The notes under the pieces: generated by a model
The model's database searches: none
The model's input: only the letters and a program-made list of their open reading frames with translations
Told to the model about the DNA's origin: nothing
Position numbers and translations under genes: made by a program
Part shown: positions 32,437 through 49,502 of the stretch, piece by piece
Position numbering within the stretch: the stretch's first letter is position 1
Layout: the number at the start of each line of letters is the position of its first letter
IMG/VR virus record: IMGVR_UViG_2541047680_000004
From: a virus
Lineage: Duplodnaviria; Heunggongvirae; Uroviricota; Caudoviricetes
Length of the DNA: 64,000 nt
Direction: 5' to 3' (one strand)

Positions 32437-33327
32437 TTATGCCGGTAAAGCAATTTCTAACGGTTTATCCAAAGGTTGTTTGTCGAATGCCAGCAGTGGC
32501 AGCGTGTCAGGCAGTCGACGGCCAAAGTCAGGGTTTCGGTACACACCATACAACGGAGACGTAAAGCTCAGGTTGTGAATGTCCTTGAGCAGCTTCACAA
32601 TGCTGGCCTCGTCCACCAGACTGTCGGCAATGTCCTGAATCGTCGTGCCACGATTCCGCCCAGCTTTTGCCAGGGAACTGTTCTTGTGGTAGTCCGCCAC
32701 CAGATCACGCAGTGCACGGCGACGACGAGACTCGCTCATTGCGAACAATTCTTTGACGATCGCCTCGTTATCACCCGGGTCGGAACGGAAATGGCGCTGG
32801 AATACACGCAGTGCACTTTCATAGCTCTTCGGTCGCTCAGGGCGGATGAACTTAAACCCTGCTTTCATGGCGAAGGGATTGTATTTGCTCATCGAGGACT
32901 GGATCTCAATGATTGGCCGGTCATGCATCCTGCTAACCAGGTTAATCATTCGATAAGAGACGCCTACGCCACGATACTGAGTATCCACAACTGAGCGACT
33001 GATCACCGCAAAGTTGTTATTCACGTACCGACCCCAGTACTGGTTAGCCACGGTGGTATTAGTGGTTGGTTTCAACTTAGGAAACATGCGGTGGCGAGGT
33101 GCCAGCAGTAGTTTCGGGTAAGCCATAACCACGACGCCCACCAGACGGTCATCAAGTTCGCAGCGATAGTAAGTTGGCGCGAAAGGTTTGCCGTCTGTTT
33201 TGTAGTGAAGCGACTTAAGAGCGTGCCAGTCCTCTACAGTTCCCTTTGTGACAGTCATTCGCTCCAGAAAGTCCAGATGACGCGGAAACTCTTCAGGGCG
33301 GTAGCGTTTAATGATGATGTCCGTCAT
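32437..33327 (-). CDS. GNAT-like acetyltransferase domain protein with C-terminal extension
   Basis: VVDTQYRGVGVSYRMI (R-x-x-G-x-G-like) and NPFAMKAGFKFI resemble GNAT motifs A and B; 296 aa. Confidence 0.45.
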   Translation of the reverse strand: MTDIIIKRYRPEEFPRHLDFLERMTVTKGTVEDWHALKSLHYKTDGKPFAPTYYRCELDDRLVGVVVMAYPKLLLAPRHRMFPKLKPTTNTTVANQYWGRYVNNNFAVISRSVVDTQYRGVGVSYRMINLVSRMHDRPIIEIQSSMSKYNPFAMKAGFKFIRPERPKSYESALRVFQRHFRSDPGDNEAIVKELFAMSESRRRRALRDLVADYHKNSSLAKAGRNRGTTIQDIADSLVDEASIVKLLKDIHNLSFTSPLYGVYRNPDFGRRLPDTLPLLAFDKQPLDKPLEIALPA

Positions 33328-33989
33328 AAATGAACCTCATCATGACTACCATTGTGATATTCCACCTTCACGCGTTCTTTGTAGTGCTTGGTGATCTGCA
33401 TATCCGGGCGCAGCGCGTTCTTCAGGTCTTCGTGAGTCGTCGCCACCATTACCGTCGCACCAACCTTTCGAGCGGCACGCTGGAGGTTAGATGCCACAAC
33501 CTGAGCGGTTACACGGTCTAGAACAGCACCGAACTCGTCAGCAGCCCACACTTTAGCGCCTGACTCAATCAGTTTGGCAATCTTGAGACGATATTTCTGA
33601 CCGTCTGACATTTCAGAAGGCTTGCGAACAAACAGATATGCATCGTTCAGACCAGCCATAGATAACAACCCAAGCGCATCGCTGGTCGTTTTGCCCAACT
33701 GATCGATGACGTTAACCTCATTATCGAAGGTAAAATCATCGATGGAGGCTACAGACAGCCCTTCATCCTTCATCTGTCGTTGCAACTCGCGCAGCACAAC
33801 GGATTTGCCGGAACCGGATTGGCCGGTGATGTACACCACATCGCCCTGCTTCACTTCCAGCTCCAGATTGTCGTAAAGCGTCCACTCTTTTTCGTCCAGG
33901 CCAAGCCCGAACGACTCAGCGATTTCCAACGTGCGCGTGGTTTTATTTACGCGTGTCTGAAACGATACGTTGATGATGTATTTGCTCAT
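33324..33989 (-). CDS. small ABC-type ATPase
   Basis: Walker A GQSGSGKS, signature-like MSDGQKYRL, Walker B VWAADEF, H-loop TTHE; 221 aa, no transmembrane partner adjacent. Confidence 0.8.
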   Translation of the reverse strand: MSKYIINVSFQTRVNKTTRTLEIAESFGLGLDEKEWTLYDNLELEVKQGDVVYITGQSGSGKSVVLRELQRQMKDEGLSVASIDDFTFDNEVNVIDQLGKTTSDALGLLSMAGLNDAYLFVRKPSEMSDGQKYRLKIAKLIESGAKVWAADEFGAVLDRVTAQVVASNLQRAARKVGATVMVATTHEDLKNALRPDMQITKHYKERVKVEYHNGSHDEVHL

Positions 33990-34654
33990 ACAGCCATCTC
34001 CCCGGAAGAGATCTTCTCCGCATATGCCACAAATGCGTCTACCCCGCTTTCTCCCGTCATTTCTTCCATGTGGGCAAGCAAATCACCAACAACAATGGCA
34101 GAGCCAGCAGGAAGCGTTTTAAAGCCCAATACGTCGACAACACGTACTTCTTCCGCTGCAACTTCACGACTGATCTCGGTGTGTTCATCCTTCTGTCGTT
34201 TAGTTTCTTCGCCAAGATCGATAACTAGCGAGTCGGTGTCCATTTCTTCTGTCATGCTGCCAACGAGAACATTCAACTCACGCTCTTCAAAGCCGAAAAC
34301 CTCGATATCGTCCAGAACAAGCGACTCAAGCTCTTTCTGTAGCTTAATTGCATCGTAATCAATGCTGGCAAGTCGGTTATCTTCAAGGCGCTTCGCACGA
34401 ACCTCGTCATCACTGAGATCATCGCGAACAATAACCGGTACGCGCTCAAGTCCAGCAAAAATTGCAGCCTCACGGCGGCCGTGGCCAGTAATAATTACGT
34501 CGTTCTTATCGACCGTAATTGGCTGGTCAAATCCGCGCTTTTTAATGGCTGCGGCTAGATCTCGGATCTGCTGTTCATCATGCTTTTTGGCATTCATCTC
34601 ATAGGGAATAAGATCTGCCGGGTCGCGATATACGATTTCAAACTTTTTGGTCAT
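33986..34654 (-). CDS. ParB/Srx-like N-terminal domain protein
   Basis: motif ITGHGRREAA (GxxRxxA-type ParB box); start set at internal Met overlapping upstream stop. Confidence 0.7.
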   Translation of the reverse strand: MTKKFEIVYRDPADLIPYEMNAKKHDEQQIRDLAAAIKKRGFDQPITVDKNDVIITGHGRREAAIFAGLERVPVIVRDDLSDDEVRAKRLEDNRLASIDYDAIKLQKELESLVLDDIEVFGFEERELNVLVGSMTEEMDTDSLVIDLGEETKRQKDEHTEISREVAAEEVRVVDVLGFKTLPAGSAIVVGDLLAHMEEMTGESGVDAFVAYAEKISSGEMAV

Positions 34655-35334
34655 TACATACGCTCCTTGTAGTAGTCGACCAGCCACACCAGAGCCTCAC
34701 CAGCGTTCTCCATTTCATTACCGGTGTTAATAGCCTGCTCTTTGATGATGTTTTTTATGGTTTCTGCAACACGATCTGACGCATCGAAAGTTACTTTGAA
34801 GCGCATGGTCTGATGTTCCGCCCCCACACGTTCGGTTTTCTCTCGTTTGTCGGTATCGACAGGCTCATCACTACCACGAGACAACGCCTCCAGTGCTTCA
34901 AGGTCGATTGCCGCCTCTTTTGCTAAAACCATCGAGATTTCGTCGTCATACGGGGCGATTTCAGACAGTTGATAGTCAAGTTCTGACTGAATTTCTTCAA
35001 TGAAGCGTTGCAATGCGATTTGGTCGTCTTCACCGTATCGCTCGTTGTCCACCAGTGACATCTGTTTAGCTACGACATCGCTAATTTTGCCCACAGAAAG
35101 CACTGGAACCGTTGAAATTCCTTGCTCAATAGCGGCACGCCAGCGATGTTCGCCGCCGAGGATTTCAAAAAATCCATCTTCAAGTTCACGAGCCAAAATT
35201 GGCTTAAAAAAGCCCAATTTTTCGATAGAACCTTTCAGTTTTTCAAAATTCTGCGCACCAACCGAATTGGTGTTCCAGGTATTCGGGCGAAGGTTGGCAA
35301 CATCAACCTGCAAAATCGTGATTTTTACATCCAT
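34654..35334 (-). CDS. ParB/Srx-like N-terminal domain protein
   Basis: motif ILGGEHRWRAA; first gene of the minus-strand operon; start codon uncertain (ATG at 35334 or GTG at 35352). Confidence 0.7.
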   Translation of the reverse strand: MDVKITILQVDVANLRPNTWNTNSVGAQNFEKLKGSIEKLGFFKPILARELEDGFFEILGGEHRWRAAIEQGISTVPVLSVGKISDVVAKQMSLVDNERYGEDDQIALQRFIEEIQSELDYQLSEIAPYDDEISMVLAKEAAIDLEALEALSRGSDEPVDTDKREKTERVGAEHQTMRFKVTFDASDRVAETIKNIIKEQAINTGNEMENAGEALVWLVDYYKERM

Positions 35335-35352
35335 TTTATTGCTACAATCCAC

Positions 35353-36978: not shown

Positions 36979-37257
36979 ATGAGTGAAAAGAAAACAACTT
37001 ACTGTCAGGTAGCATTGTCTGATAAGGCCAATGACAAACTTGGAAAGTTTCAAGTGAAACTAAAAGAAAAAAATATCAAAATGTCTAAGGCTGAAGTCAT
37101 AAATACCATTCTGGAACAATTGACAATGGCCGACTTTGACAAGGTTATATCTTCTGTCGGGGCTTCCGCTAAGACTCGTGAGAAAATCATGCGTATCTAT
37201 GAGAACTCTAATATGACAAAGGAAGATCTCGAAACGCTATTAAGCAGATTAAAATAA
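36979..37257 (+). CDS. hypothetical small protein
   Basis: 92-aa ORF tightly following the helicase gene. Confidence 0.35.
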   Translation: MSEKKTTYCQVALSDKANDKLGKFQVKLKEKNIKMSKAEVINTILEQLTMADFDKVISSVGASAKTREKIMRIYENSNMTKEDLETLLSRLK

Positions 37258-37325: not shown

Positions 37326-37748
37326 ATGAAATACTCGCTTCTCCCTCTACTAACGTTACCAGTGTTGATGCTTACCGCGTGCCAATCACGCCCAATATCA
37401 ATCCATGACGCCAAACCAGCACCGCAGGCCAAAGTGTTCAAGTATCAAAGCGCAGCGCCAGCTACGTTGGTGGTAATGAGAGACACAGGTTTTGTAGGAG
37501 CTGGATGTGATGCTTCCATTTTCATCAACGGCGAAACTGTCGCAAAACTGGCTACAGGCGAAAAAGCGACTTTCCATTTAAATGCCGGAGAATTAATTGT
37601 GGGTGCATCTCTTGAAGGTGCAGGTTTATGTGCTCTAAACCCCGCTCGTCAAGAGCGAGAAACGACTCTGAAGAATGGAGACACAAAAGCGTTCAGGGTG
37701 TTCACCAGCAATTCTGGTGACATCGACATTCTGCCAACAACTCTGTGA
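37326..37748 (+). CDS. lipoprotein
   Basis: signal peptide MKYSLLPLLTLPVLMLTAC with lipobox LTAC; start set at MKYSL. Confidence 0.5.
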   Translation: MKYSLLPLLTLPVLMLTACQSRPISIHDAKPAPQAKVFKYQSAAPATLVVMRDTGFVGAGCDASIFINGETVAKLATGEKATFHLNAGELIVGASLEGAGLCALNPARQERETTLKNGDTKAFRVFTSNSGDIDILPTTL

Positions 37749-37752
37749 TGAC

Positions 37753-38277
37753 ATGACAACCAAAGATATTACCTACGGTATCCAAGCTGAACTCTGGCCG
37801 CGAGATTACACTAACGTTGAAAAACTACTGATGTTCTGGCGCAGAGAACAAATTCCTGTAAGGGTCACTCTCGAAGATGGCCAGGCGTTTTGCATGTACG
37901 TTTATGGCCTCATGCCATCTCGTAACAAAGTTGACCTTTGCCCAGCCCCTTTTGACAAAGAAAATCGTATAAGGCTCCCACTTGAACGCATTAGTACAAT
38001 TGAATCAGGTGTGGTTGACAGTATCGCTCACGATTTCAAAGGTCGACTAACAGTTCACCCTGATTATGTCGATAATCGGCCATCACGCCGCGATTTTTTT
38101 GCAATTTGCAACCAAGCCTACAAAGCAAACAAATCTATAAGGGTGTACATGGCGGATGGCCGTGAAATTGAGGGGGTGTCAGCAGGCGCAGATGCTTGTC
38201 AGGTTACACTACGTGTCGAGAACGGTAGAAAAATAGTTGTTTTGTTCGATTGGGTTGAACGAATTTTGCCTTTTTGA
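37753..38277 (+). CDS. hypothetical protein
   Basis: 174 aa from MTTKDITYG; no motif recognised. Confidence 0.45.
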   Translation: MTTKDITYGIQAELWPRDYTNVEKLLMFWRREQIPVRVTLEDGQAFCMYVYGLMPSRNKVDLCPAPFDKENRIRLPLERISTIESGVVDSIAHDFKGRLTVHPDYVDNRPSRRDFFAICNQAYKANKSIRVYMADGREIEGVSAGADACQVTLRVENGRKIVVLFDWVERILPF

Positions 38278-39793: not shown

Positions 39794-40024
39794 ATGTTTG
39801 TTCTTATCGCTGGCGTTAACGTCCATAATGAATATTATGTTAATCGCATCGCTGGGATCGCTGGTTACGCTGGGCGCGCAGTCGAGCTTATAGATGAAAC
39901 GACGCGCAAAATTGACTTATTGAGCGACCAGGAGCGAAAAAAAGCAGACGTGAACGACGCTGATATATTTTTAATGTTAAAAGCGTTTGTAGAAATGGGA
40001 TTTGAAATCAGTCTACATAAATAA
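39794..40024 (+). CDS. hypothetical small protein (moron gene 3)
   Basis: 76-aa ORF with RBS-like AAGGAG upstream. Confidence 0.4.
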   Translation: MFVLIAGVNVHNEYYVNRIAGIAGYAGRAVELIDETTRKIDLLSDQERKKADVNDADIFLMLKAFVEMGFEISLHK

Positions 40025-40029
40025 AATCG

Positions 40030-40054
40030 AGCGCCCACTATGGGCGCTTTTTTC
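40030..40054 (+). terminator. rho-independent terminator
   Basis: stem GCGCCC/GGGCGC, loop ACTAT, then TTTTTT. Confidence 0.65.
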
Positions 40055-40075
40055 GTTTCCAATACTCCCACCAAA

Positions 40076-40101
40076 ACGCGCCAATGATGGCGCGTTTTTT
40101 A
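40076..40101 (+). terminator. second tandem terminator (bidirectional shape)
   Basis: stem ACGCGCCA/TGGCGCGT, loop ATGA, T-run after and A-run before. Confidence 0.6.
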
Positions 40102-40472
40102 TTGTCTTTAACTCACTCCAACAACATAAAAATAAGCGCCAAAATAACGCCATAGACGCGCTTTTATATCCTTACCAGTACATACCCATTACTTAACACA
40201 TTAACGCGCTTAAAACGCGTTATATTGCGCTATAGAGTATGGTTAATCATTGGCTTTTAGTCTTGCTTTATGATCCGCGTTTATTTGTCGGCGCGGATCG
40301 GCATTTTGTTTTGTTCCGTATCCGCTCGCGTATTATGTGCGCGTGATTTTTCACATAATCACACCACTTAATCACGTATGTGATTATGCTACGAAAGAAA
40401 TCTGGATGTCTCAGGCGACGAAAGTCATCATAATTTTCCCCGCTCACCTGTCCGACAACCGCTGGTTGGATT

Positions 40473-40480
40473 CCACCAGC
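40473..40480 (-). other. Chi sequence (GCTGGTGG on minus strand)
   Basis: CCACCAGC on plus strand; forms 9-bp inverted repeat with the Chi at 40597-40604 bracketing iteron cluster 1. Confidence 0.5.
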
Positions 40481-40594
40481 TTCCCGATGTTTTTTCTACA
40501 CAAAGGCGAATGCAGCCGTTTCCCGAAAAAATCCTGGCCGTTCCCCGTCGGCTCATGAATACGTTCCTCGCCGTTTCTGAAAATTTCCCTGCGG
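40481..40594. repeat. iteron cluster 1 (direct repeats of GCCGTTTCCCGAAAA-like units)
   Basis: units at about 40514, 40536, 40570 with partial copies at 40488, 40561, 40584; 22-33 bp phasing; ORF-free convergent intergenic region. Confidence 0.6.
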
Positions 40595-40596
40595 CA

Positions 40597-40604
40597 GCTG
40601 GTGG
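40597..40604 (+). other. Chi sequence GCTGGTGG
   Basis: exact octamer. Confidence 0.5.
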
Positions 40605-40640
40605 CTATAGAGAAAGGGCCGTTTCTGGCCCTCTTCTCAG

Positions 40641-41123
40641 TTACACGCCATCAAGGATGTGGATGCGGTTGCTTGCGTATACATTCAGCATAAAGTTAGC
40701 GCAAAACAGTTTCCATGTATCAACGCCAGCGGTATACGTAATGTTTTTGCATTTAATCGCATTGTTGGCGATCCGCATCCCCTGCGATACTGCTTCATCG
40801 TCGGAAAATTTGAACGACGATTGAGTTTTAATCCAGACAGAAATCTGCGTAGCAAACTCAATCAGCTTAGACTGGCAGAATCGCCCGGAGCGTACCGGGA
40901 AGACGAACGTTCCGAATCCAGAATTAACCACATATGCTTTCTCAAATACCCTCGAGTAACGACGATTGCCAATGATGTCGCGTGCAATAATGCATTTTTC
41001 TTGTGCTGACAGTTCTACCGTCTCATTGTCGCGCCATGCACCAAGTACTCGTTTTTCAATGTCAGAGAACGTTACAGCGATATTGCCATGTGCGGGTGCG
41101 TTTACAGTAGCGATAAAATTCAT
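40641..41123 (-). CDS. hypothetical protein
   Basis: 160-aa ORF preceded by family-1 operator and GATAAT-like element. Confidence 0.45.
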   Translation of the reverse strand: MNFIATVNAPAHGNIAVTFSDIEKRVLGAWRDNETVELSAQEKCIIARDIIGNRRYSRVFEKAYVVNSGFGTFVFPVRSGRFCQSKLIEFATQISVWIKTQSSFKFSDDEAVSQGMRIANNAIKCKNITYTAGVDTWKLFCANFMLNVYASNRIHILDGV

Positions 41124-41142
41124 GATTAATTCCTTATCGTAA

Positions 41143-41177
41143 ATAACAAATTGTTTTCTTGTTGGTGTTAATTATCG
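41143..41177. promoter_or_regulatory. family-1 operator/promoter element
   Basis: AACAAATTGTTTTCTTGTTGGTGTTAATTATCG; GATAAT-like -10 on gene strand. Confidence 0.5.
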
Positions 41178-41207
41178 TTGTACGAATAAGGCGTCAAAGT
41201 GGAAAGT

Positions 41208-41280
41208 TGCGGTAGCCGGACGGGAACAGGTGGGTTTGTCGGTTGCCTGGAGGTAAGAGGTTGGTGTTTTTAGCCTGCGG
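41208..41280. repeat. about 70-bp G/T-rich repeat, copy A
   Basis: roughly 75 percent identical to 44385-44455 (shared GGTAGCC..AGGTGGGT..TCGGT.GCCTG..AAGAGGTTGGT). Confidence 0.5.
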
Positions 41281-41473
41281 GAAACAGGATGGTCATTTAA
41301 GGCCACCAATGCTGATGGCCTTAATAATTATCGACCGATTACGCTAAGGATCTTTTCCTCAACTGATTTGTTGTTGCGACTAAACTGCCTTGCGTATCTG
41401 ATGACAGAAGAGGCGTTTTGCTTTCTGACCATCTCGGCTCTTTCCTTCAGGCGTTTCTTGAAATCGCCCATAT

Positions 41474-41848
41474 TTACCACCAGGCGCAGAAGGTCAGTCT
41501 GTTATTGTGAAAGTCGTGGTTCCTGATCAGGTCTTCCACAAGTTTTTTCAGCTTATCCACGTCATGCCAGTAACCTTCGTCGTACTCCTGACTGCCGAAG
41601 AAAAAACCTTCCCGAGTAGGCAAGTACTCTTCGCAATTGCTTTCGTTTATGTGCATCAAATGAGCTTTCAGAAGACAAATGTCATTCATCGTTAATTCTA
41701 AAAGCTCACAATTTTCGACTTCACCTACGTTGCGCTCCATCCACCCAACGAGCGCATTGAACTTACGGAAGTAAGCAACCTGCTTTCTGGATGCCTCGTT
41801 ATTCAGATCGTTTTTAGGCTGTGTCTCGATATAGATATCAAGTCCCAT
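41474..41848 (-). CDS. hypothetical protein
   Basis: start set at MGLDIY with RBS AAGGAAA; Trp/Cys-containing C-terminus. Confidence 0.45.
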   Translation of the reverse strand: MGLDIYIETQPKNDLNNEASRKQVAYFRKFNALVGWMERNVGEVENCELLELTMNDICLLKAHLMHINESNCEEYLPTREGFFFGSQEYDEGYWHDVDKLKKLVEDLIRNHDFHNNRLTFCAWW

Positions 41849-41882
41849 GATGGTTTCCTTATTAAGTTGCTTCAGTGAAATC

Positions 41883-41922
41883 ATTTTCACAAATCAGATA
41901 AGGCAGAAAACAAATTGTTATC
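41883..41922. promoter_or_regulatory. family-1 operator element (B-form)
   Basis: ATTTTCACAAATCAGATAAGGCAGAAAACAAATTGTTATC. Confidence 0.5.
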
Positions 41923-41930
41923 GGGCATAA

Positions 41931-41958
41931 TAAAATGGCGCGGTTTACGCGCCATTTA
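41931..41958 (-). terminator. terminator hairpin after gene 41966..42361
   Basis: perfect inverted repeat AAATGGCGCG / CGCGCCATTT with loop GTTTA. Confidence 0.5.
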
Positions 41959-41965
41959 AAGAGGA

Positions 41966-42361
41966 TTAAGCGAATACGCTTTCAGGGATTAAGGTGTCGG
42001 CAGGAATGCCAGAGGTAATGCGCAGACCGTACTGGCCAATCCAGGTGGTGCTGGTGTTCAGGCTGGAGGCGAATACGGTGTTAACCATATTCATCATGGT
42101 TTCAAACACCTCTTCATCAACCTGGCGGAAGTAGTTCTCGATTTTCAGCAGCAGCGGGTCAGTTGCATCGAGAATGGACTGGTATTGAGTCGCGTACTCG
42201 CCGTCGGAGGCATCACCTTTACGCACGATCGTACTGGCCTGTACTTCGGCACCAGTTTCGGTGTTGTACGTAACAACGGTGATTTTTGCCACATTCTTAC
42301 CTTCGGCGGTTTCAGAGGCATAGTAAACATCAACTGTCAGTTTTTCGCGTTTAACGGTCAT
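41966..42361 (-). CDS. hypothetical protein
   Basis: start set at MTVKREKL with RBS GGAGAG. Confidence 0.45.
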   Translation of the reverse strand: MTVKREKLTVDVYYASETAEGKNVAKITVVTYNTETGAEVQASTIVRKGDASDGEYATQYQSILDATDPLLLKIENYFRQVDEEVFETMMNMVNTVFASSLNTSTTWIGQYGLRITSGIPADTLIPESVFA

Positions 42362-42487
42362 TTCACTCTCCGTAGTGTATTGGTTATTTTTATATTCTAT
42401 GATCGTAAGTATGTACTTACAATACAAAAAAGCCCCGTAAGGATGGCGGGGCTGTCGTACTGTCGACTAATTACCACTTGCACATTA

Positions 42488-42799
42488 TCAGGCTATTGCC
42501 ATCACTGATGCTCTCTGAATTTCTTGCTGGGCCACGCGGTTAACTTCCATCAAGGCCAGTTCGAGCTGATGTTCCGGCCACATTCTTTGAAACGCCATCC
42601 AGCCTTTTCCACGCTGGCGACGAACATTCATTACATAACGAGTAAAGGTGTTTTTATCGAAAGACACCGCTGTTTCACGGAACAGACGAATAGAGGTTCC
42701 ATTGGCAACGATGTCCAGCAAAGTTAATTGAGCAACCAGCGCAGGCTTCTCTTTTCTCTTCTGGTCTTTGTCCAGACCAAGAACCAATGATTTTTTCAT
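42488..42799 (-). CDS. hypothetical protein
   Basis: start set at MKKSLVLGL; basic. Confidence 0.45.
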   Translation of the reverse strand: MKKSLVLGLDKDQKRKEKPALVAQLTLLDIVANGTSIRLFRETAVSFDKNTFTRYVMNVRRQRGKGWMAFQRMWPEHQLELALMEVNRVAQQEIQRASVMAIA

Positions 42800-42810
42800 C
42801 ACAACTCCGT

Positions 42811-42834
42811 AAACAACTTGTTTTCTCAATGGCG
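42811..42834. promoter_or_regulatory. family-1 operator element
   Basis: AAACAACTTGTTTTCTCAATGGCG about 12 nt upstream of the start codon. Confidence 0.5.
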
Positions 42835-42953
42835 TAAATAATACCAGTAAGAAAACGGCTACAAAGCATAATGATCAGGTGTATGAGCGATATGCAGGTT
42901 CTTCCCTGCGGCTACAGATGAAGTTAAGCCAGCATTGCTGGCTTTGGTTGGGT

Positions 42954-43283
42954 TTACTCGAATACTTCAAGAAACTCCTGAACGTCCCAATGCTGGACGA
43001 GGTGAAGATAGACCTTAGAAATCACGTCATTTTCGCTATCGCATGTGAAGTAGTACTTCTGGCTGCGGTTGTATGTGTCCACACAAAATTCGCTCATATC
43101 CATAAAGTCAGCATCTTCACCCATGTCGCAAATCATCAAAGCAGGTGCATCATCACGAGTCATCAGCTCCAGCACCCATCTTGAATTAATCAGAGTGGAA
43201 GACCAACCTTCCAGCTCATAGAACTGGTCAAACTCTTTTTGAGTTAATTTCTTGATTTGGTTGATGTCGATATTTGCAAACAT
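42954..43283 (-). CDS. hypothetical small acidic protein
   Basis: start set at MFANIDIN; Asp/Glu-rich. Confidence 0.45.
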   Translation of the reverse strand: MFANIDINQIKKLTQKEFDQFYELEGWSSTLINSRWVLELMTRDDAPALMICDMGEDADFMDMSEFCVDTYNRSQKYYFTCDSENDVISKVYLHLVQHWDVQEFLEVFE

Positions 43284-43294
43284 AAAGCAATCCT

Positions 43295-43329
43295 TAAACA
43301 ACATGTTTTCTTGATGGTGTTATTATCGC
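43295..43329. promoter_or_regulatory. family-1 operator/promoter element
   Basis: TAAACAACATGTTTTCTTGATGGTGTTATTATCGC. Confidence 0.5.
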
Positions 43330-43444
43330 AATAACGCACAGGCGAAAAAGGATTTTATTCCGGTGAATATGGTTTTGGCAGTGAGTTTTCAGGTTCAGTA
43401 CCGAGTATACTTTTTACATTATTCTGATTTAGTGGCCGAAGGTG

Positions 43445-43452
43445 GCTGGTGG
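43445..43452 (+). other. Chi sequence GCTGGTGG
   Basis: exact octamer about 200 bp from iteron cluster 2. Confidence 0.45.
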
Positions 43453-43644
43453 GCAGAATAATCCTCTCCCCGAAAACCTACTGAAATCGATTGTGACCCG
43501 TTGGCTGTCTGGCACAATTACGCTGTAGCTGGGCATTCAGAGGGAATCCAGCGGTAAGCAAGTCCGCCTACGTGAGCGCCTCTCTTCTTCCCGCACATTA
43601 CAGGTGGGTAGCCGCAACTCTCCCTCTCGCTATACCGGTACGCC

Positions 43645-43777
43645 GCCGTTCCTGAACCGGCATCGAGCCTTTTCCCGAAATCCACACAGGCAACTCGACC
43701 GTTTCCCTGAAAACCTCCAGCCGTTCCCCGAAGGCAACCCAGCCTTTTCTGTAGCGGGATGCAACCTTTTCCCTGTA
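43645..43777. repeat. iteron cluster 2 (six direct repeats, about 22-bp phasing)
   Basis: units at 43645, 43666, 43697, 43719, 43741, 43763 (e.g. GACCGTTTCCCTGAAAA); extra copy near 43470; same family as cluster 1. Confidence 0.65.
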
Positions 43778-44100
43778 TGGACCGAAGGCTGACCGTAGGG
43801 GTTTTACGGGGGATAAAATCAGGAGTTGAATAAATACGAAAAAGGAGGCGACACCCCTCCTTCCCTCCCCACTTATACATACCTGGCTTCTTCGCTATAC
43901 ATGTTGTGTTTTCTTCGTGTTTTATCTGTCTCAACCTCTCTATAGGCGTTAATGCTCACTCCTTCCAGAACCTTCTATACGGCGACTATTTCTGTTGGTG
44001 AATTGGGTGTGTTGTTCTCTCTGTCGGTGTATGTGGTTTCGTTCGTTTTGCGGTGGTTCTTCTATGGGGTGTTCTCGTCGTTTTGGTGATTGTTCTTCTC

Positions 44101-44460
44101 CGTGTATGGAGTAATGGCAGGTGGGCGATTCCTTTCGTTATTGTGTTTGAGTTGTTTGTCTGGAGTGTGTGAAAGGCTTTTGTAGTTATTCGTGTATTGG
44201 GTAATGGCGTTTCCCGTGATTGTTATGTTTCGTGTCTTTTGGGATTGAGAGAAACCTTGCGGTTACAGGCTTCGTTGGGGTTTCAGTGATTCTGGTGTTT
44301 CTTCGCTGTTTGGGTAATGGCGTGTCGTGGGTATCGCGCGTATGAATGTTTTCGGATTGCCTGTGAAAGTTAGGTTGGTTGTCCGGTAGCCTGGGGAGAA
44401 GAGGTGGGTCTTTTCGGTAGCCTGCCATAAAGAGGTTGGTTGTTTTGGGTAATGGTATAT
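44101..44460. repeat. direct repeats in GT-rich ORF-free region
   Basis: CGTGTAT(T)GG(A/G)GTAATGGC at 44101, 44191, 44304 and degenerate copy at 44437; strong G+T excess on plus strand across 43960-44700. Confidence 0.55.
44385..44455. repeat. about 70-bp G/T-rich repeat, copy B
   Basis: pairs with 41208-41280. Confidence 0.5.
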
Positions 44461-44701
44461 GTGTTATTTAGTTGTTTTGTTATGCCTGAAAATAAGTTGT
44501 TTATATGGTTGTGTAACGCAACGGGAGCGATTTTGAGCGTGTGTTTTTGTTGGTAGTGTGTTGAGTCGTCTGTGGTGAAAATTGGACGCTGTGGCGCTAT
44601 CTGCTGCGTAGAATTACGGGTATAAGAAGTGATGTGTGATAACGTCAATTTTTTAGACCAAATCGGGAGAAAGCGTTGATGTTTCGTTGATCTGTTATTT
44701 A

Positions 44702-44728
44702 GTTGTTTTCTTATTGGTATAAACAACC
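44702..44728. promoter_or_regulatory. family-1 half-site element
   Basis: GTTGTTTTCTTATTGGTATAAACAACC; would drive minus-strand transcription into the GT-rich region. Confidence 0.35.
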
Positions 44729-44845
44729 ATAACCTATTGATATTTAATGATGTGATTGCTGGTATGGGAGGGGAGTAGTGGCGATCAACGGGTTCTTATA
44801 GAAAAGAATCAAATTGTGACCGCCATTATCAATAAGTTGCAACCG

Positions 44846-45451
44846 TTAGTTGTTCAGATAAACATTTGGAACACGGACGTAGAACTTACTGTTACCGGTA
44901 AGTTCCAGAGTAATGTTAATGTCATTACCATTGTCTAGTGTAGCCGTCGCTCTATAGAACTTATCAGTTACCTTTTCGTCAATATTAACCTTGATGCATT
45001 TCGCCGCAGTAGAACCATTATGCTCTTTCAGAATAGTTGTCACGACAGGACATGCGGCTTCCTCAATGACGCCATCTTCCTGTTTCGGTATTACAATGAA
45101 GAATACGTAAGCCAGCAAGGTAACGACTATAATAAATGGCAGTCTACTGCTCTTTGTTATAGTCGCACGCTTCCATAGGTAGATTGGCATGAAAACTATT
45201 CCCCATAAAATAGCAGGTGGCTCATAGCCGGATTCCGAAATCGCCATTCTGTCAGCCACTAATAATCCGATGGCAGCTAAACTTCCAATTAATACAGCAT
45301 AATTTGCATACTCTTCGTTCGGAATGCCGAAGCAAATTGGAATAAAAGCTAAAATCCACGCATAAGTGTTATTCAAAGGTTTTTTTTGTTGGTTATTGGT
45401 TTCCATCACATCCATCTCATCACTTAAATTACTTGTATATATTATCAACAT
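44846..45451 (-). CDS. membrane protein (three or four N-terminal TM helices plus soluble C-terminal domain)
   Basis: hydrophobic segments WILAFIPICF, VLIGSLAAIGLLV, AILWGIVFMPIYL, FIIVVTLLAYVFFIV; AT-rich segment. Confidence 0.5.
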   Translation of the reverse strand: MLIIYTSNLSDEMDVMETNNQQKKPLNNTYAWILAFIPICFGIPNEEYANYAVLIGSLAAIGLLVADRMAISESGYEPPAILWGIVFMPIYLWKRATITKSSRLPFIIVVTLLAYVFFIVIPKQEDGVIEEAACPVVTTILKEHNGSTAAKCIKVNIDEKVTDKFYRATATLDNGNDINITLELTGNSKFYVRVPNVYLNN

Positions 45452-45527
45452 TTAACAAACATAACCTAAACACACAGCAGATATAGCATTACAAACTCAT
45501 TGTGAAAACCATTATCATAGGAAACGA

Positions 45528-45713
45528 TTAGATGAGATGGTCTAATTCATCATCTATCATGGCTTTGACGCTGGAGTCATTCACTCCATATTTATTTATG
45601 AGCTGTTTCAGCTCTGGCGAAAACTGAAGGTAGATATCGTGAGCGTTTTTCACTGTAGGTTCAACGCCACGCATTTCAAGCGCCTTTAGTAGATATGAGT
45701 CTTCTTTAAGCAT
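45528..45713 (-). CDS. hypothetical small protein
   Basis: 61-aa ORF. Confidence 0.3.
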   Translation of the reverse strand: MLKEDSYLLKALEMRGVEPTVKNAHDIYLQFSPELKQLINKYGVNDSSVKAMIDDELDHLI

Positions 45714-45749
45714 AAATTCTCCGTTATCTAGTATGAAGCGATTGCCGGA

Positions 45750-46049
45750 TTACCATTGCCAGCACTCAAGCCCTTCAACGACCGGTGCGCCACAATCAAA
45801 ATGTACAGAGTCAAAGCCTACATCAAGTACTTTCTGAATGTTCGCAATCGCGCCCTCGGATATACCATATCGACGCAACTCATCTATCCAGTCATCGTCC
45901 TGTAACCCGGCGTGGACAATGCAACCGTACTCAATTTGTGAAACCCAATCCAGCTCATTGCTTGCGATCATGAATCGGCGAGCATCTTCCTCTGATGTAT
46001 GAGATGAGCTGATCAATGCCACCTGGTAGGCTTGGGTAATGTTCAACAT
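45750..46049 (-). CDS. hypothetical protein
   Basis: ATG start at 46049 with RBS GGAGTGG; family-1 operator pair immediately upstream. Confidence 0.4.
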   Translation of the reverse strand: MLNITQAYQVALISSSHTSEEDARRFMIASNELDWVSQIEYGCIVHAGLQDDDWIDELRRYGISEGAIANIQKVLDVGFDSVHFDCGAPVVEGLECWQW

Positions 46050-46062
46050 TTCAACCACTCCA

Positions 46063-46095
46063 AAACAAGTTGTTTTCTTATGTGGTTTATTATCT
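46063..46095. promoter_or_regulatory. family-1 operator/promoter element
   Basis: AAAACAAGTTGTTTTCTTATGTGGTTTATTATC. Confidence 0.5.
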
Positions 46096-46107
46096 CCATC
46101 AACAAAA

Positions 46108-46130
46108 GGCAGAAAACATATTGTTTTAGG
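46108..46130. promoter_or_regulatory. family-1 operator element (B-form)
   Basis: GGCAGAAAACATATTGTTTTAGG about 40 bp from metG terminator. Confidence 0.5.
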
Positions 46131-46162
46131 TACTGTGTAAATCAGAAGGGATTGTGTCTATA

Positions 46163-46190
46163 TGAAAATGCCCGGCGTGTTGCCGGGCAT
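46163..46190 (-). terminator. metG rho-independent terminator
   Basis: stem ATGCCCGGC/GCCGGGCAT, loop GTGTT, U-run on minus-strand transcript. Confidence 0.7.
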
Positions 46191-46210
46191 TGCGAAGAGA
46201 GGTTGTTTAA

Positions 46211-48244
46211 TTACTTAACCTGGTGGCCAGGTTTAGCACCAGCATCCGGGCTTAACAGGAAGATATCTTTCCCGCCGGGGCCAGCAGCCATCACCATGCC
46301 TTCAGAGATACCGAAGCGCATTTTACGCGGAGCCAGGTTAGCCACCATAATTGTGTGACGACCAATCAGTGCCTGTGGGTCTGGATAAGCAGAACGGATG
46401 CCTGAGAAGACATTACGCTTTTCACCACCGAGATCCAGCGTCAGGCGCAGCAGCTTGTCAGAACCTTCAACAAACTCTGCGTTTTCAATCAGCGCCACGC
46501 GCAGGTCAACTTTAGCGAAGTCGTCAAAGGTGATGGTTTCCTGAATCGGGTCGTCTGCCAGTGGGCCAGTTACCGGTGCGGCTGTGGCTTTCACTTCTTC
46601 TTTGGATGCTTCCACCAGTGCTTCCACCTGTTTCATATCGATACGGTTATACAATGCCTTGAACGGATTCACTTTATGGCCCAGCAGCGGTTGCTGGATA
46701 CCATCCCAGGTCAGTTCTGTATTCAGGAATGCTTCTGCACGTTCAGTCAGTTTCGGCAGTACCGGTTTCAAGTAAGTCATCAGCACGCGGAACAGGTTAA
46801 TGCCCATAGAGCAAATCGCCTGCAGATCGGCATCGCGTCCTTCCTGCTTCGCCACCACCCACGGAGCCTGTTCATCAACATAGCGGTTAGCCAGGTCAGC
46901 CAGTGCCATGATTTCACGGATAGCTTTACCAAATTCGCGGCTTTCCCATGCTTCGCCAATCACTTCAGCGGCATCAGTAAAGGTTTTGTACAGTTGCGGG
47001 TCAGCCAGTTCGCTTGCCAGCACGCCGTCAAAACGCTTGTTGATAAAGCCTGCATTACGGGAGGCCAGGTTAACCACTTTGTTCACGATATCGGCATTCA
47101 CGCGCTGAACGAAATCCTCCAGGTTGAGATCGATATCATCAATGCGCGAAGAGAGTTTCGCAGTGTAGTAGTAACGCAGGCTGTCGGCGTCAAAATGATT
47201 CAGCCAGGTGCTGGCTTTAATAAAGGTACCGCGAGACTTAGACATCTTCGCGCCGTTCACCGTCACATAGCCATGAACAAACAGGTTGGTCGGCTTGCGG
47301 AAGTTGCTGCCTTCCAGCATTGCTGGCCAGAACAGACTGTGGAAGTAAACAATATCTTTACCGATGAAGTGGTACAGCTCGGCGGTGGAGTCTTTCTTCC
47401 AGTATTCATCGAAGCTTACGCTGTCGCCGCGCTTGTCGCACAGATTCTTGAAAGAACCCATATAGCCAATCGGCGCATCTAGCCAGACGTAGAAATATTT
47501 ACCCGGCGCGTTCGGAATTTCAAAACCGAAATACGGCGCGTCGCGGGAGATATCCCACTGTTGCAGGCCAGATTCAAACCACTCCTGCATTTTATTTGCC
47601 ACCTGCTCCTGCAACGCACCGCTGCGGGTCCATGCCTGCAACATTTCGCTGAAAGAGGGCAGATCAAAGAAGAAGTGTTCAGAATCACGCATTACCGGCG
47701 TAGCGCCAGAAACCACCGATTTCGGCTCGATCAATTCAGTCGGGCTGTAGGTCGCGCCGCAGACTTCGCAGTTATCGCCGTATTGATCCGGGGATTTACA
47801 TTTCGGGCAGGTGCCTTTCACAAAACGATCCGGCAGGAACATGCCTTTTTCCGGGTCGTACAACTGAGAGATAGTGCGATTTTTAATAAAACCGTTCTCT
47901 TTCAGGCGAGTATAGATAAGCTCAGACAACTGACGGTTCTCTTCGCTGTGCGTCGAGTGATAGTTGTCATAGCTGATGTTAAAGCCTGCGAAATCAGTCT
48001 GGTGTTCCTGACTCATTTCGCCAATCATCTGCTCCGGTGTGATACCAAGTTGCTGTGCTTTCAGCATGATCGGCGTACCGTGGGCATCGTCGGCACAGAT
48101 GAAATTAACCTCGTGGCCGCGCATTCGCTGGTAACGAACCCAGACATCAGCCTGGATGTGCTCCAGCATATGGCCGAGGTGGATTGAGCCGTTAGCGTAC
48201 GGCAGCGCGCACGTCACCAGAATTTTCTTCGCGACTTGGGTCAT
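46211..48244 (-). CDS. metG: methionine--tRNA ligase
   Basis: 677 aa from [25 protein letters not shown] (HIGH-type) with KMSKS; C-terminal tRNA-binding domain; near-identical to enterobacterial MetG as I recall it. Confidence 0.97.
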
Positions 48245-48401
48245 AGTAGGCATTACTTCTTTGTAGTGAAAAGGGGCTTGATAGTAACAAAATGGCCTTA
48301 TGTCTGCCATGTGATAACAGCATTTCTCATAAATGATTAAATGTCGCAGCTGGAGTACACTACAAGGCGACAATTGCGCAAATTAAAATAAAGGAGACGG
48401 G

Positions 48402-49502
48402 ATGAGCGAGTCCAAATCGCCGGATGCCCTGAGAGCAATGGTAGCCGGTACGCTGGCTAATTTTCAGCACCCAACCCTGAAACACAACCTGACTACGCTT
48501 AAAGCGTTACACCATGTTGCGTTGATGGATGACACACTGCATGTCGAACTAATCATGCCTTTCGTGTGGAATAAGCCTTTTGAAGACCTGAAAGAGCAAT
48601 GTAGTGGTGATCTGCTCCGTATCACTGGCGCAAAGGCTATTGACTGGAAGCTGTCGTACAACATTGCCACGCTTAAGCGCGTCAAAAACCAACCAGGCAT
48701 TAATGGTGTTAAGAATATTATCGCCGTAAGCTCAGGCAAGGGCGGTGTAGGCAAATCGTCCACAGCAGTAAACTTGGCACTGGCTTTGGCTGCTGAAGGT
48801 GCGAAAGTTGGTATTTTGGATGCCGATATCTATGGTCCATCAATTCCAACCATGCTGGGCGCGGAAAACCAACGTCCAACCTCACCGGACGGTACTCACA
48901 TGGCACCTATCATGTCTCATGGCCTGGCAACCAACTCTATTGGTTATCTGGTCACCGACGACAATGCAATGGTGTGGCGTGGACCGATGGCCAGCAAGGC
49001 GCTGATGCAGATGTTGCAGGAAACACTGTGGCCTGATCTGGACTATCTCGTTCTCGATATGCCGCCGGGCACTGGTGATATTCAATTGACGCTGGCGCAG
49101 AACATTCCTGTAACTGGTGCGGTTGTGGTAACTACGCCGCAAGACATCGCGCTGATCGATGCGAAGAAAGGCATTGTGATGTTCGAAAAAGTCGAAGTGC
49201 CGGTACTAGGTATCGTCGAAAACATGAGTGTGCATATTTGCAGTAACTGCGGTCATCACGAGCCAATTTTTGGCACCGGTGGCGCACAGAAACTGGCCGA
49301 GAAATACAACACGCAGTTGTTAGGCCAAATGCCACTTCATATCTCTCTTCGTGAAGATCTGGATAACGGAACACCAACCGTTATTAGTCGTCCAGATAGC
49401 GAATTTACGGCTATTTATCGTGACCTCGCAGATCGCGTTGCTGCCCAAATGTATTGGCAAGGTGAAGTAATACCTGGCGAAATCGCATTCCGCGCAGTGT
49501 GA
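48402..49502 (+). CDS. apbC: Fe-S cluster carrier ATPase Mrp/ApbC
   Basis: P-loop SSGKGGVGKS, CxxC motif (CSNCGH); divergent from metG as in E. coli. Confidence 0.95.
   Translation: MSESKSPDALRAMVAGTLANFQHPTLKHNLTTLKALHHVALMDDTLHVELIMPFVWNKPFEDLKEQCSGDLLRITGAKAIDWKLSYNIATLKRVKNQPGINGVKNIIAVSSGKGGVGKSSTAVNLALALAAEGAKVGILDADIYGPSIPTMLGAENQRPTSPDGTHMAPIMSHGLATNSIGYLVTDDNAMVWRGPMASKALMQMLQETLWPDLDYLVLDMPPGTGDIQLTLAQNIPVTGAVVVTTPQDIALIDAKKGIVMFEKVEVPVLGIVENMSVHICSNCGHHEPIFGTGGAQKLAEKYNTQLLGQMPLHISLREDLDNGTPTVISRPDSEFTAIYRDLADRVAAQMYWQGEVIPGEIAFRAV

Follow-up and report, generated by a model that had tools for sequence, protein, structure and literature searches.

Paired arrays of bipartite direct repeats in an SSU5-like phage-plasmid look like docking sites for a DNA-binding protein rather than small RNA genes

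Results

The window (the whole 64,000-nucleotide stretch analysed) belongs to an SSU5-like phage-plasmid and is about 97% identical to Escherichia phage Cyrano. SSU5-type phage-plasmids, among them pHCM2 from Salmonella Typhi and pMT1 from Yersinia pestis, commonly carry accessory and resistance genes. Two G/T-rich elements, which we call arrays 1 and 2, lie outside conserved open reading frames in a part of the window that contains the following features.

40515..40589, + strand: C-box cluster 1, direct repeats GCCGTT(T/C)C(C/T)(C/G) starting at 40515, 40537 and 40570; array 1 follows 696 bp to the right
40641..41123, - strand: p160, a conserved 160-aa gene (phrog_1641), always directly downstream of array 1
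41171..41198, - strand: putative sigma-70-like p160 promoter, TTTGAC-N16-GATAAT, read from the sequence
41300..41323, no strand: conserved G+C-rich hairpin bordering array 1, sequences read by eye
43305..44845, no strand: conserved 1.5-kb non-coding region, 68-75% identity across genera
43645..43785, + strand: C-box cluster 2, six repeats at 43645, 43667, 43698, 43720, 43742 and 43764
43839..43865, - strand: intrinsic-terminator-like hairpin with T run, to the right of C-box cluster 2 and to the left of the G+T-rich stretch
43900..44750, no strand: non-coding stretch around array 2, G+T-rich on the + strand by composition
44104..44456, + strand: third repeat family, GTAT(G/T)G(A/G)GTAATGGC, at ~44104, ~44194, ~44307 and ~44442

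An earlier note on this DNA had described the two elements as non-coding copies of roughly 70 bp, at 41208-41280 and 44385-44455, and both are indeed present there. Each is in fact made of three head-to-tail bipartite units on the + strand, with a period of 28-31 bp. The 26-bp unit consists of a CGGTAGCCTG box (box A, consensus (C)GGTAGCCTG), a variable 6-nt spacer and a second box (box B, consensus AGAGGT(G/T)GGT), and the three-unit layout places the true extents of the elements at ~41206-41297 and ~44350-44444.

41210..41235, + strand: array 1 unit a, CGGTAGCCGG-acggga-ACAGGTGGGT, 33.1 bits
41240..41265, + strand: array 1 unit b, CGGTTGCCTG-gaggta-AGAGGTTGGT, 34.8 bits
41268..41293, + strand: array 1 unit c, degenerate, TTTTAGCCTG-cgggaa-ACAGGATGGT, 19.0 bits; repeat family D2
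44354..44379, + strand: array 2 unit a, degenerate, GGATTGCCTG-tgaaag-TTAGGTTGGT, 18.4 bits
44384..44409, + strand: array 2 unit b, CGGTAGCCTG-gggaga-AGAGGTGGGT, 41.4 bits
44415..44440, + strand: array 2 unit c, CGGTAGCCTG-ccataa-AGAGGTTGGT, 34.4 bits

In a 10-sequence alignment of both arrays, the degenerate unit a of array 2 lines up with unit a of array 1. The internal direct repeat noticed earlier in each copy is thus real, although it had been under-described, each site being a tandem array of three ~30-bp units. Similarly, an identity of about 75% holds for a 62-nt core (47/62, or 76%, counted on the printed pairwise alignment) but falls to 50 of 74 columns (68%) over 41208-41280 and 44385-44455 as a whole; the global alignment of these two segments scores 7.8 sd above composition-matched shuffles. 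The blocks said to be shared, GGTAGCC, AGGTGGGT and AAGAGGTTGGT, all occur in both copies, and the G/T-rich description fits, at 68-69% G+T for both arrays. The non-coding assignment also stands: no open reading frame of at least 50 aa covers array 1 in the window, and the one over array 2 is frame-broken in relatives by non-triplet indels.

The arrays are unique in the genome. The bipartite pattern has four matches in the 64 kb, compared with 0.00 expected from shuffles, and a weight-matrix scan of the window and of one complete relative (112.6 kb) finds the six units only. Tandem Repeats Finder gave no rows, because the units are too diverged when the spacers are counted in.

The immediate surroundings of the two arrays differ. 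Array 1 lies beside the putative p160 promoter, both hexamers of which are conserved in 8 genomes, although a strict consensus scan did not list it. Array and promoter are 11 bp apart in the window but 18 bp apart in relatives, and this 7-bp shift in the distance to the -35 hexamer, between the E. coli lineage and the other relatives, argues against an activator whose action depends on helical face. The stem of the hairpin at 41300..41323 is preserved in relatives though the sequences differ, and there is no T run. Array 2, on the other hand, has no recognisable sigma-70 promoter alongside, so that action close to a promoter cannot by itself account for the pair.

Array 2 shares the conserved 1.5-kb region with C-box cluster 2 and the GTAATGGC repeats, the last copy of which (~44442) adjoins the array. 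The genome's most keto-rich 800 bp fall within the G+T-rich stretch, and the lowest G+C content (36%) is found immediately to the right of array 2. Autocorrelation within this stretch gave z values of at most 2.6, with no hidden periodicity, and Rfam and folding analyses of the 400 conserved bp rightward of array 2 gave nothing convincing. The idea that the stretch derives from p160 by degradation found no support; paralogy is detectable for the C-box and array segments only.

Each array has a C-box companion. In the window the GCCGTTTCCC (C-box) clusters are phased at 22 bp, in cluster 2 mostly so, and lie ~700 bp to the left of each array, array 2 being 710 bp to the right of cluster 2. The same arrangement, with a GCCGTTTCCC cluster 620-730 bp leftward of each array, is seen in 18 genomes, and a complete relative has two such clusters only. 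A plasmid with a C-box match that had seemed unrelated, H66, proved to be another SSU5-like element.

How well is this organisation conserved? The region is present in 231 of 5,426 complete E. coli genomes, is plasmid-borne every time and is never annotated, and all SSU5/pHCM2/pMT1-type phage-plasmids keep the array pair at the same two locations. The boxes are near-invariant in relatives from Salmonella, Klebsiella, Enterobacter, Citrobacter, Buttiauxella and Yersinia, including SSU5, pHCM2, pMT1, Klebsiella pJN2-26 and ST13-OXA48phi12.3, whereas the spacer sequence differs from unit to unit and genome to genome. Across 99 distinct units from ~120 IMG/VR loci, spaced at 28-31 bp, the box cores carry 1.4-1.9 bits of information, compared with 0.35-0.8 bits for the spacer. 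Since the motif itself was used to collect these loci, the box conservation in this set is partly circular; the direct sequence alignments of relatives are free of such selection.

Polarity and position are fixed as well. In 53 loci that contain p160, all 189 tandem units (189/189) share one strand, with 0 on the opposite strand, and the first unit of array 1 is 87-88 or 116-118 bp from the p160 ATG. Array 2 follows at 1,442-4,214 bp from array 1 in identical orientation, whatever the intervening genes, which vary. In the most diverged relative (L011), whose p160 is 51% identical, box B has changed in concert at both sites, to GAGTGGTGTT, a sequence absent from the rest of the 16.5 kb.

Of the two functions suggested in the earlier note, that of paralogous small RNA genes is not supported. 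An Rfam scan of 40000-46500 returned only a sub-threshold match to Hrs1, at 40037-40103, away from the arrays. The structure prediction with covariation that the note had called for gave nothing above shuffles: array folding energies on both strands are close to those of shuffled sequences (z = -0.23, +0.67, -0.48 and +0.64), and RNAalifold, applied to the 10-sequence alignment, yields 8 pairs with 0 compensatory changes and a covariation term of +0.21. A promoter/terminator consensus scan found no pair flanking either array, and a hairpin adjoins array 1 only. For Cyrano, CYRAN_103, which lies over array 2, has a log2(5+FPKM) of 2.32 in LB lysogens, equivalent to zero reads (PMC9928086 S1 Table); the value covers only lysogens, of a relative that is 97% identical to the window, and the strand handling of its counts is uncertain.

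Discussion

The other suggested function, that of protein-binding sites, fits the combination of boxes, free spacer, phasing by about three helical turns, fixed strand and position, and concerted change in box B. Each site has three direct repeats in one orientation, phased at 28-31 bp, with a recognition core that is conserved and intervening positions that vary across diverged genomes, as in iteron-like arrays. To judge from the sequence comparisons, the arrays look like docking sites for a DNA-binding protein rather than small RNA genes, and we think it probable that the two elements act in cis as sites on the DNA and are paralogous to each other, each comprising three 26-bp bipartite recognition units.

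Could the arrays act instead within transcripts? As small RNAs from the + strand, each would carry three Shine-Dalgarno-like AAGAGGUG motifs, and box B does read as Shine-Dalgarno-like on that strand. On the minus strand they would form an anti-Shine-Dalgarno- or boxA-like motif, ACCCACCUCUU, in read-through RNA, for example an untranslated transcript, C/A-rich and G-poor, that would serve for Rho loading or as a sponge for an RNA-binding protein. Over 43.9-44.75 kb the minus strand has a strong excess of C over G and ends at the terminator-like hairpin, and one product of the element, a FljA-family protein, has a weak Hfq-like match. We nevertheless regard an action in RNA as unlikely, given the results of the Rfam, folding, covariation and promoter/terminator analyses and the zero FPKM of CYRAN_103, in Cyrano lysogens only. 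Array 1 also lies upstream of the sole nearby promoter, so that it could be transcribed only by read-through past the conserved hairpin, and neither a base-pairing seed nor a structured RNA would predict invariant boxes around a free spacer. The collinearity of the two modules, in each of which a C-box cluster is followed ~700 bp rightward by an array, might alternatively mark them as a functionless remnant of an old segmental duplication. The boxes, however, are invariant over at least six genera while neighbouring spacers and flanks diverge, box B has changed at both sites together in L011, and the arrays have been kept despite turnover of the genes between them, all of which makes a remnant very hard to credit.

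Two further explanations were weighed. One, itself a special case of protein binding, is that the 1.5-kb non-coding region is the lytic origin (oriL) of SSU5-type phage-plasmids, with the bipartite units, the 22-bp-phased C-boxes or both serving as initiator iterons, and the smaller p160 module acting as a distal enhancer like P4 crr, SPP1 oriR or the distal iterons of R6K. Three direct-repeat families do lie within one long conserved non-coding region, the C-boxes have the classical 22-bp phasing, the G+C minimum is directly to the right of array 2, and the phage, though it has no annotated origin, brings its own replisome (DnaE, DnaB-like helicase and primase). In addition, pMT1 has lost the large region, beside IS1541, and kept its RepA replicon, which implies that the region is dispensable for plasmid maintenance. 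Against this, a search of the window's non-coding region that allowed one mismatch found no DnaA box, ~45 kb separate the region from the genes for helicase and primase, no initiator candidate adjoins the region, the G+T-rich stretch lacks hidden periodicity, and the cumulative skew is monotonic genome-wide, with no origin signal; we consider an origin possible but doubtful. The other explanation is that the arrays are centromere-like or DNA-bridging sites for an orphan gene set at 33324-35352 encoding two ParB_N proteins and an ABC ATPase. Two ParB-like paralogues would then read the bipartite units and the C-boxes, for segregation, pairing or packaging, in a manner comparable with the dispersed N15 centromeres or RK2 KorB operators. 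Both ParB_N proteins, whose C-terminal halves are uncharacterised, and the ATPase are core genes in every relative examined, there are two site families, both at two loci, and bipartite box A/box B recognition is established for P1 ParB. Nothing, however, ties these proteins to the array sites: their genes are 6-10 kb off, adjoining terminase, a helix-turn-helix domain was detected in neither ParB_N protein, the ATPase is ABC/SMC-like rather than ParA-like, the large region is dispensable in pMT1, and the array boxes presumably do not resemble those of P1/P7 parS. A partition role seems to us distinctly improbable.

Several other candidates were discarded. RepA iterons are a separate feature: in the complete relative pYLPM7a, more than 15 copies of TATGCTGYCAGCGGT, together with a DnaA-box/GATC region, flank repA, and the arrays, ~35 kb from repA, are unrelated to them. 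Nor does the repeat sequence co-vary with Rep type, the boxes being identical in the IncFIB-typed pMT1, pHCM2, Enterobacter and Citrobacter elements and in the rep_cluster_488-typed E. coli elements. Iterons have been reported 48-218 bp from repA in IncpKPHS1 plasmids (PMC6735626), and these too are distinct from the arrays. A parS centromere of the P1/P7/pMT1 type, in which box A heptamers and box B hexamers surround an IHF site beside parAB, does not fit: IHF-consensus sites occur only at 44730 and 44827, none within or between units, and no par operon is adjacent. Transposon or Mu-type end-binding sites would be inverted, whereas the arrays are directly oriented in every genome examined; two direct res or att sites on a single replicon would lead to loss of the intervening DNA; and unit length and the absence of spacers tell against a CRISPR array. 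Palindromic operator triplets of the lambda type do not fit asymmetric units with matches on one strand and an array 1 upstream of the predicted -35. Our literature search found no account of these bipartite repeats, and a 2026 preprint on phage-plasmid heteroresistance deals with a different family.

How might docking sites of this kind work? We infer that a sequence-specific DNA-binding protein of the phage-plasmid, either a monomer with two DNA-reading parts or a hetero-pair, would bind each asymmetric unit in a single orientation, the three copies being aligned on one helix face (28-31 bp is about three helical turns) for cooperative binding. Occupancy of array 1, which ends 11-18 bp upstream of the p160 -35, would set p160 transcription and could shield the promoter from upstream read-through, while array 2 sits at the edge of the 1.5-kb non-coding region, the putative control region. 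One protein could occupy both arrays, because specificity, orientation and the C-box companion at ~700 bp are common to both, and it may bridge them, looping out 1.4-4.2 kb of variable early genes, much as two operator or iteron triplets communicate in lambda OL/OR, P4 ori/crr and R6K. The binder candidates p160 and a 92-aa protein (36979-37257) gave no supporting fold evidence. The AF2 model of p160, a confident one (pLDDT 89.5), has no structural neighbour and no recognisable DNA-binding fold; the 92-aa protein, a suspected ribbon-helix-helix protein, has no Pfam match, low-complexity PDB matches only and a low-confidence AF2 model (pLDDT 58).

A broader proposal, which we offer as a speculative one with the odds against it, is that C-box cluster, ~700-bp interval and bipartite triplet make up an undescribed two-component cis module present exactly twice per genome, the G+T-rich copy being the lytic origin or master control region, the p160 copy its distal partner, and the readers core proteins such as the ParB_N pair. 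Genome-unique, conserved across genera and beside the genome's most compositionally extreme non-coding stretch, the array pair offers a concrete handle on lysis-lysogeny control and the lytic origin of SSU5-type phage-plasmids; should the arrays be ordinary operator sites of one early regulator, they would amount to a useful annotation and little more.

Comparison with known systems brings out what is distinctive here. Like the iterons of P1 oriR/incA, F ori2/incC, R6K, lambda ori and P4 ori/crr, the arrays repeat a unit directly and in tandem, in a single orientation and in phase with the helix; cores are conserved, linkers less so, and there are two clusters kilobases apart, one beside a promoter. 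Unlike iterons, their period is 28-31 bp rather than ~22 bp, their unit is bipartite and 26 bp long, and they adjoin no rep gene and are unrelated to the element's own RepA iterons. Lambda OL and OR are likewise two three-site sets a few kilobases apart that flank regulatory or early genes, one at a promoter, but these operators are palindromes in mirror orientation and overlap the -35/-10, whereas the units here are asymmetric and directly oriented, those of array 1 upstream of the -35 and those of array 2 with no promoter next to them.

The arrays may also resemble the Lrp sites of pap, 1-3 and 4-6, two three-site sets in which neighbouring sites are about three helical turns apart, a phasing that suggests an oligomer around which the DNA wraps or along which it is aligned; Lrp, however, prefers A+T-rich, partly palindromic sites, whereas the array boxes are G+C-rich and asymmetric. 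Direct-repeat centromeres and operators (R1 parC, pB171 parC1/parC2, F sopC, N15 and RK2 KorB OB) resemble the arrays in lying just upstream of a promoter and in numbering more than one per replicon, those of N15 being dispersed among the phage genes of a phage-plasmid. They differ in repeat length and sequence, and no NTPase/adaptor operon lies downstream here. The canonical P1/P7-type par system of pMT1 and pHCM2 is near repA, elsewhere in the genome from the arrays.

Repeat anatomy and conservation of the two arrays

Both of the G/T-rich elements that an earlier note had described as ~70-bp copies of one sequence, near 41.2 and 44.4 kb, are present, and are referred to here as arrays 1 and 2. 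The ~75% identity claimed for them holds in a 62-nt core (47/62, 76%) but drops to 68% (50/74 columns) over the coordinates first assigned, 41208-41280 and 44385-44455, across which the alignment scores 7.8 sd above composition-matched shuffles. Their internal repeat is real and more regular than had been proposed, with three head-to-tail units of ~30 bp at each site. Every unit comprises a box A (CGGTAGCCTG), six variable bases and a box B (AGAGGT(G/T)GGT).

Arrays, C-box clusters and p160 in the window
40515-40589: three C-boxes, GCCGTT(T/C)CCC (starts 40515-40570), just beyond p160
40641-41123: p160, the 160-aa gene beside array 1; phrog_1641, no Pfam family
41171-41198, minus strand: putative sigma-70-like promoter read by eye, TTTGAC-N16-GATAAT, left of array 1
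41210, 41240 and 41268 (unit starts), plus strand: array 1, the unit at 41268 degenerate
43645-43785: six C-boxes, GCCGTT(T/C)CCC (starts 43645-43764), mostly with 22-bp phasing, left of array 2
44354, 44384 and 44415 (unit starts), plus strand: array 2, the unit at 44354 degenerate

The bipartite pattern gives four matches against 0.00 expected. Scored with a weight matrix, the six units (18-41 bits; next best match 11.8 bits) are the sole ones in the 64-kb window, and likewise in pYLPM7a, a complete 112.6-kb relative. No conserved ORF covers either array: no ORF of at least 50 aa overlaps array 1 in the window, and the one over array 2 (annotated as CYRAN_103 in Escherichia phage Cyrano) is broken in relatives by 8-nt and other non-triplet indels.

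The window belongs to an SSU5-type phage-plasmid. Tail, head and terminase genes fill the first ~32 kb of the window, and both arrays sit in a run of small genes on the minus strand. Positions 40600-45000 are 97-98% identical to Cyrano, phage CMS-2020a and many E. coli plasmids, and have more distant kin in Klebsiella, Salmonella (SSU5, pHCM2), Enterobacter, Citrobacter and Yersinia pestis (pMT1) elements; the region occurs in 231 of 5,426 complete E. coli genomes, plasmid-borne and unannotated in every case. Strand and both syntenic positions of the motif are shared by SSU5, pHCM2, Klebsiella pJN2-26 and Klebsiella ST13-OXA48phi12.3, and by one plasmid each from Enterobacter, Citrobacter and Buttiauxella. 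Only array 1 is present in pMT1, where IS1541 occupies the expected place of the large non-coding region.

Alignments anchored on the flanks show invariant boxes, with spacers that vary both among units and among genomes. An exact-pattern scan of IMG/VR yielded ~120 loci, with 1.4-1.9 bits of information in the box cores and 0.35-0.8 bits in the spacer. Because these loci were picked by the motif itself, their box conservation is partly circular, a caveat that does not extend to orientation and synteny. All 189 tandem units in the 53 loci containing the p160 N-terminus lie on one strand. The p160 ATG lies 87-88 bp from the first unit in 35 loci and 116-118 bp from it in 10, units are spaced by 28 bp (33 cases), 29 bp (26), 30 bp (64) or 31 bp (75), and the second array lies 1,442-4,214 bp beyond the first (n = 24), with a varying number of small genes between. 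Box B occurs as AGAGGTGGGT or as GAGTGGTGTT. The most diverged relative recovered (L011), whose 160-aa protein is 51% identical, has GAGTGGTGTT at both sites, and its three occurrences in 16.5 kb all fall there; such a change in concert speaks for a single trans-acting reader.

Setting of the arrays

Surrounding array 2 is a 1.5-kb non-coding region (43305-44845), with 68-75% identity across genera. From ~43900 to 44750 the GC skew is +0.44 to +0.50 and the AT skew falls to -0.59. At 71%, or 7.6 sd over the genome mean (50%, sd 2.8%), an 800-bp part of this stretch has the highest G+T content anywhere in the 112.6-kb genome. The bias is kept as composition in the relatives, the most diverged included. 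A terminator-like hairpin (43839-43865, minus strand) marks its left end, and no ORF, periodicity or DnaA box was found in 43900-44750. About four copies of a third conserved repeat, GTAT(G/T)G(A/G)GTAATGGC, follow one another at intervals of ~90-135 bp (44104-44118, 44194-44208, ~44307-44321 and 44442-44456); in one relative (L065) a perfect DnaA box replaces one copy.

The C-boxes make a second iteron-like family. The complete relative has only these two clusters, and in 18 genomes a cluster lies 620-730 bp left of each bipartite array. The duplicated unit is thus a module of C-boxes, ~700 bp and a bipartite triplet, in which the ~700 bp holds p160 in one copy and the G+T-rich non-coding stretch in the other. 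Chi octamers (GCTGGTGG, plus strand) occur at 40597-40604, adjoining the first cluster and kept in most, not all, relatives, and at 43445-43452, ~200 bp left of the second.

The right-hand border of array 1 is a conserved G+C-rich hairpin (41300-41323). The putative promoter left of the array would drive p160; both hexamers are kept in eight genomes, and a strict promoter scan does not list the site. Array 1 and the -35 hexamer are 11 bp apart in the window, against 18 bp in other lineages.

Interpretation

What, then, are the arrays? We think it probable that they are cis-acting sites for protein binding, read by one factor. This is suggested by their genome-wide uniqueness, by two invariant boxes around a free spacer with head-to-tail phasing of about three helical turns, by polarity and synteny fixed across at least six genera, and by the concerted change at both sites; the arrays are moreover kept despite turnover of the genes between them, and carry no RNA or coding signal. 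The action of the putative factor we infer. Array 1 is placed where it could control the p160 promoter. Its distance from the -35 hexamer varies by 7 bp, however, which argues against a face-specific activator, and no promoter was found beside array 2, so that simple local regulation is less likely than shared occupancy or bridging as part of a larger control region.

The main functional rival, rather unlikely in our judgement, is that the non-coding region is a lytic origin with the p160 module as its distal partner. Loss of this region from pMT1 shows that plasmid maintenance does not need it, and DnaA boxes are absent from the window's non-coding region. Small RNA genes, the other option raised in the earlier note, and RNA-level roles in general now appear improbable. 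Rfam has no match at either array, minimum free energies on both strands of both arrays equal those of shuffles, and the proposed check of structure and covariation gave eight weak pairs with no compensatory change in a 10-sequence alignment of both arrays. No convincing covariation was seen in the conserved 400 bp right of array 2, nor does a promoter/terminator pair bracket either array. In published RNA-seq of the Cyrano lysogen LF82, which bears on a close relative in its lysogenic state only, CYRAN_103 had zero FPKM in LB, p160 (CYRAN_111) was weakly expressed, and CYRAN_102 and CYRAN_109, transcriptionally upstream of each array, were expressed (PMC9928086 S1 Table).

Two ParB_N-only proteins with an ABC/SMC-like ATPase (33324-35352, minus strand), encoded directly upstream of the terminase genes and conserved in every relative, are candidate binders; that the arrays are sites for this orphan set is nevertheless quite improbable, and a neutral duplication remnant is scarcely credible. 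The RNA-level, ParB_N and remnant readings are all less likely than protein binding or a lytic origin. Another candidate binder is a FljA-family protein (37675-38277, plus strand; PF03614, E = 2.5e-84), core to all relatives, with a weak Hfq-like match in its C-terminal part. For a conserved 92-aa protein, suspected to be ribbon-helix-helix, the model is of low confidence only.

Comparison with known sites

The plasmid replicon of pYLPM7a, outside the window, has a P1-like layout: more than 15 TATGCTGYCAGCGGT iterons flank repA, and a DnaA box and a GATC cluster lie upstream. RepA iterons were rejected for the arrays because these repeats are ~35 kb away and unrelated in sequence, and because the boxes are identical in IncFIB-typed and rep_cluster_488-typed elements. 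P1-type parS was rejected since the arrays have no IHF consensus and no adjoining par operon, palindromic operators since the units are asymmetric and upstream of the -35, and transposon-type end sites since the arrays are in direct orientation. A literature search found no description of these repeats. Tandem direct-repeat binding arrays are a familiar kind of feature; what is new is the 26-bp bipartite unit, its two triplets, their fixed pairing with 22-bp-phased C-box clusters and the extreme G+T-rich non-coding setting.

Other observations

A palindromic motif, AACAAnTTGTTTTC, has 26 two-strand matches against 3.4 expected, at 41145-41158, 41909-41922, 42812-42825, 43297-43310, 44488-44501, 46064-46077, 1139, 32007, 58512, 59241 and elsewhere. 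Many genes have it between the inferred -10 and the ribosome-binding site, and three small genes are each preceded by a copy of a 55-nt promoter/5'UTR cassette that includes it; a role as a genome-wide operator or 5'UTR control element is probable. FljA binds the fliC mRNA leader, so by analogy the FljA-family protein may act on this 5'UTR motif.

A weak Rfam match to the Hfq-regulated sRNA Hrs1 (40037-40103, minus strand; 29.4 bits against a gathering score of 56.4, E = 0.012) falls in a 600-bp convergent intergenic region, with a promoter-like site at 40454-40427. A 61-aa ORF (45528-45713, minus strand) has a sub-threshold match to the T7 gp5.9 RecBCD inhibitor (E = 0.0057). Finally, the phage-plasmid carries a full-length host-type metG (methionyl-tRNA synthetase; 46211-48373, minus strand) divergent from apbC/mrp (48402-49502, plus strand), just as the two genes are arranged on the E. 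coli chromosome.
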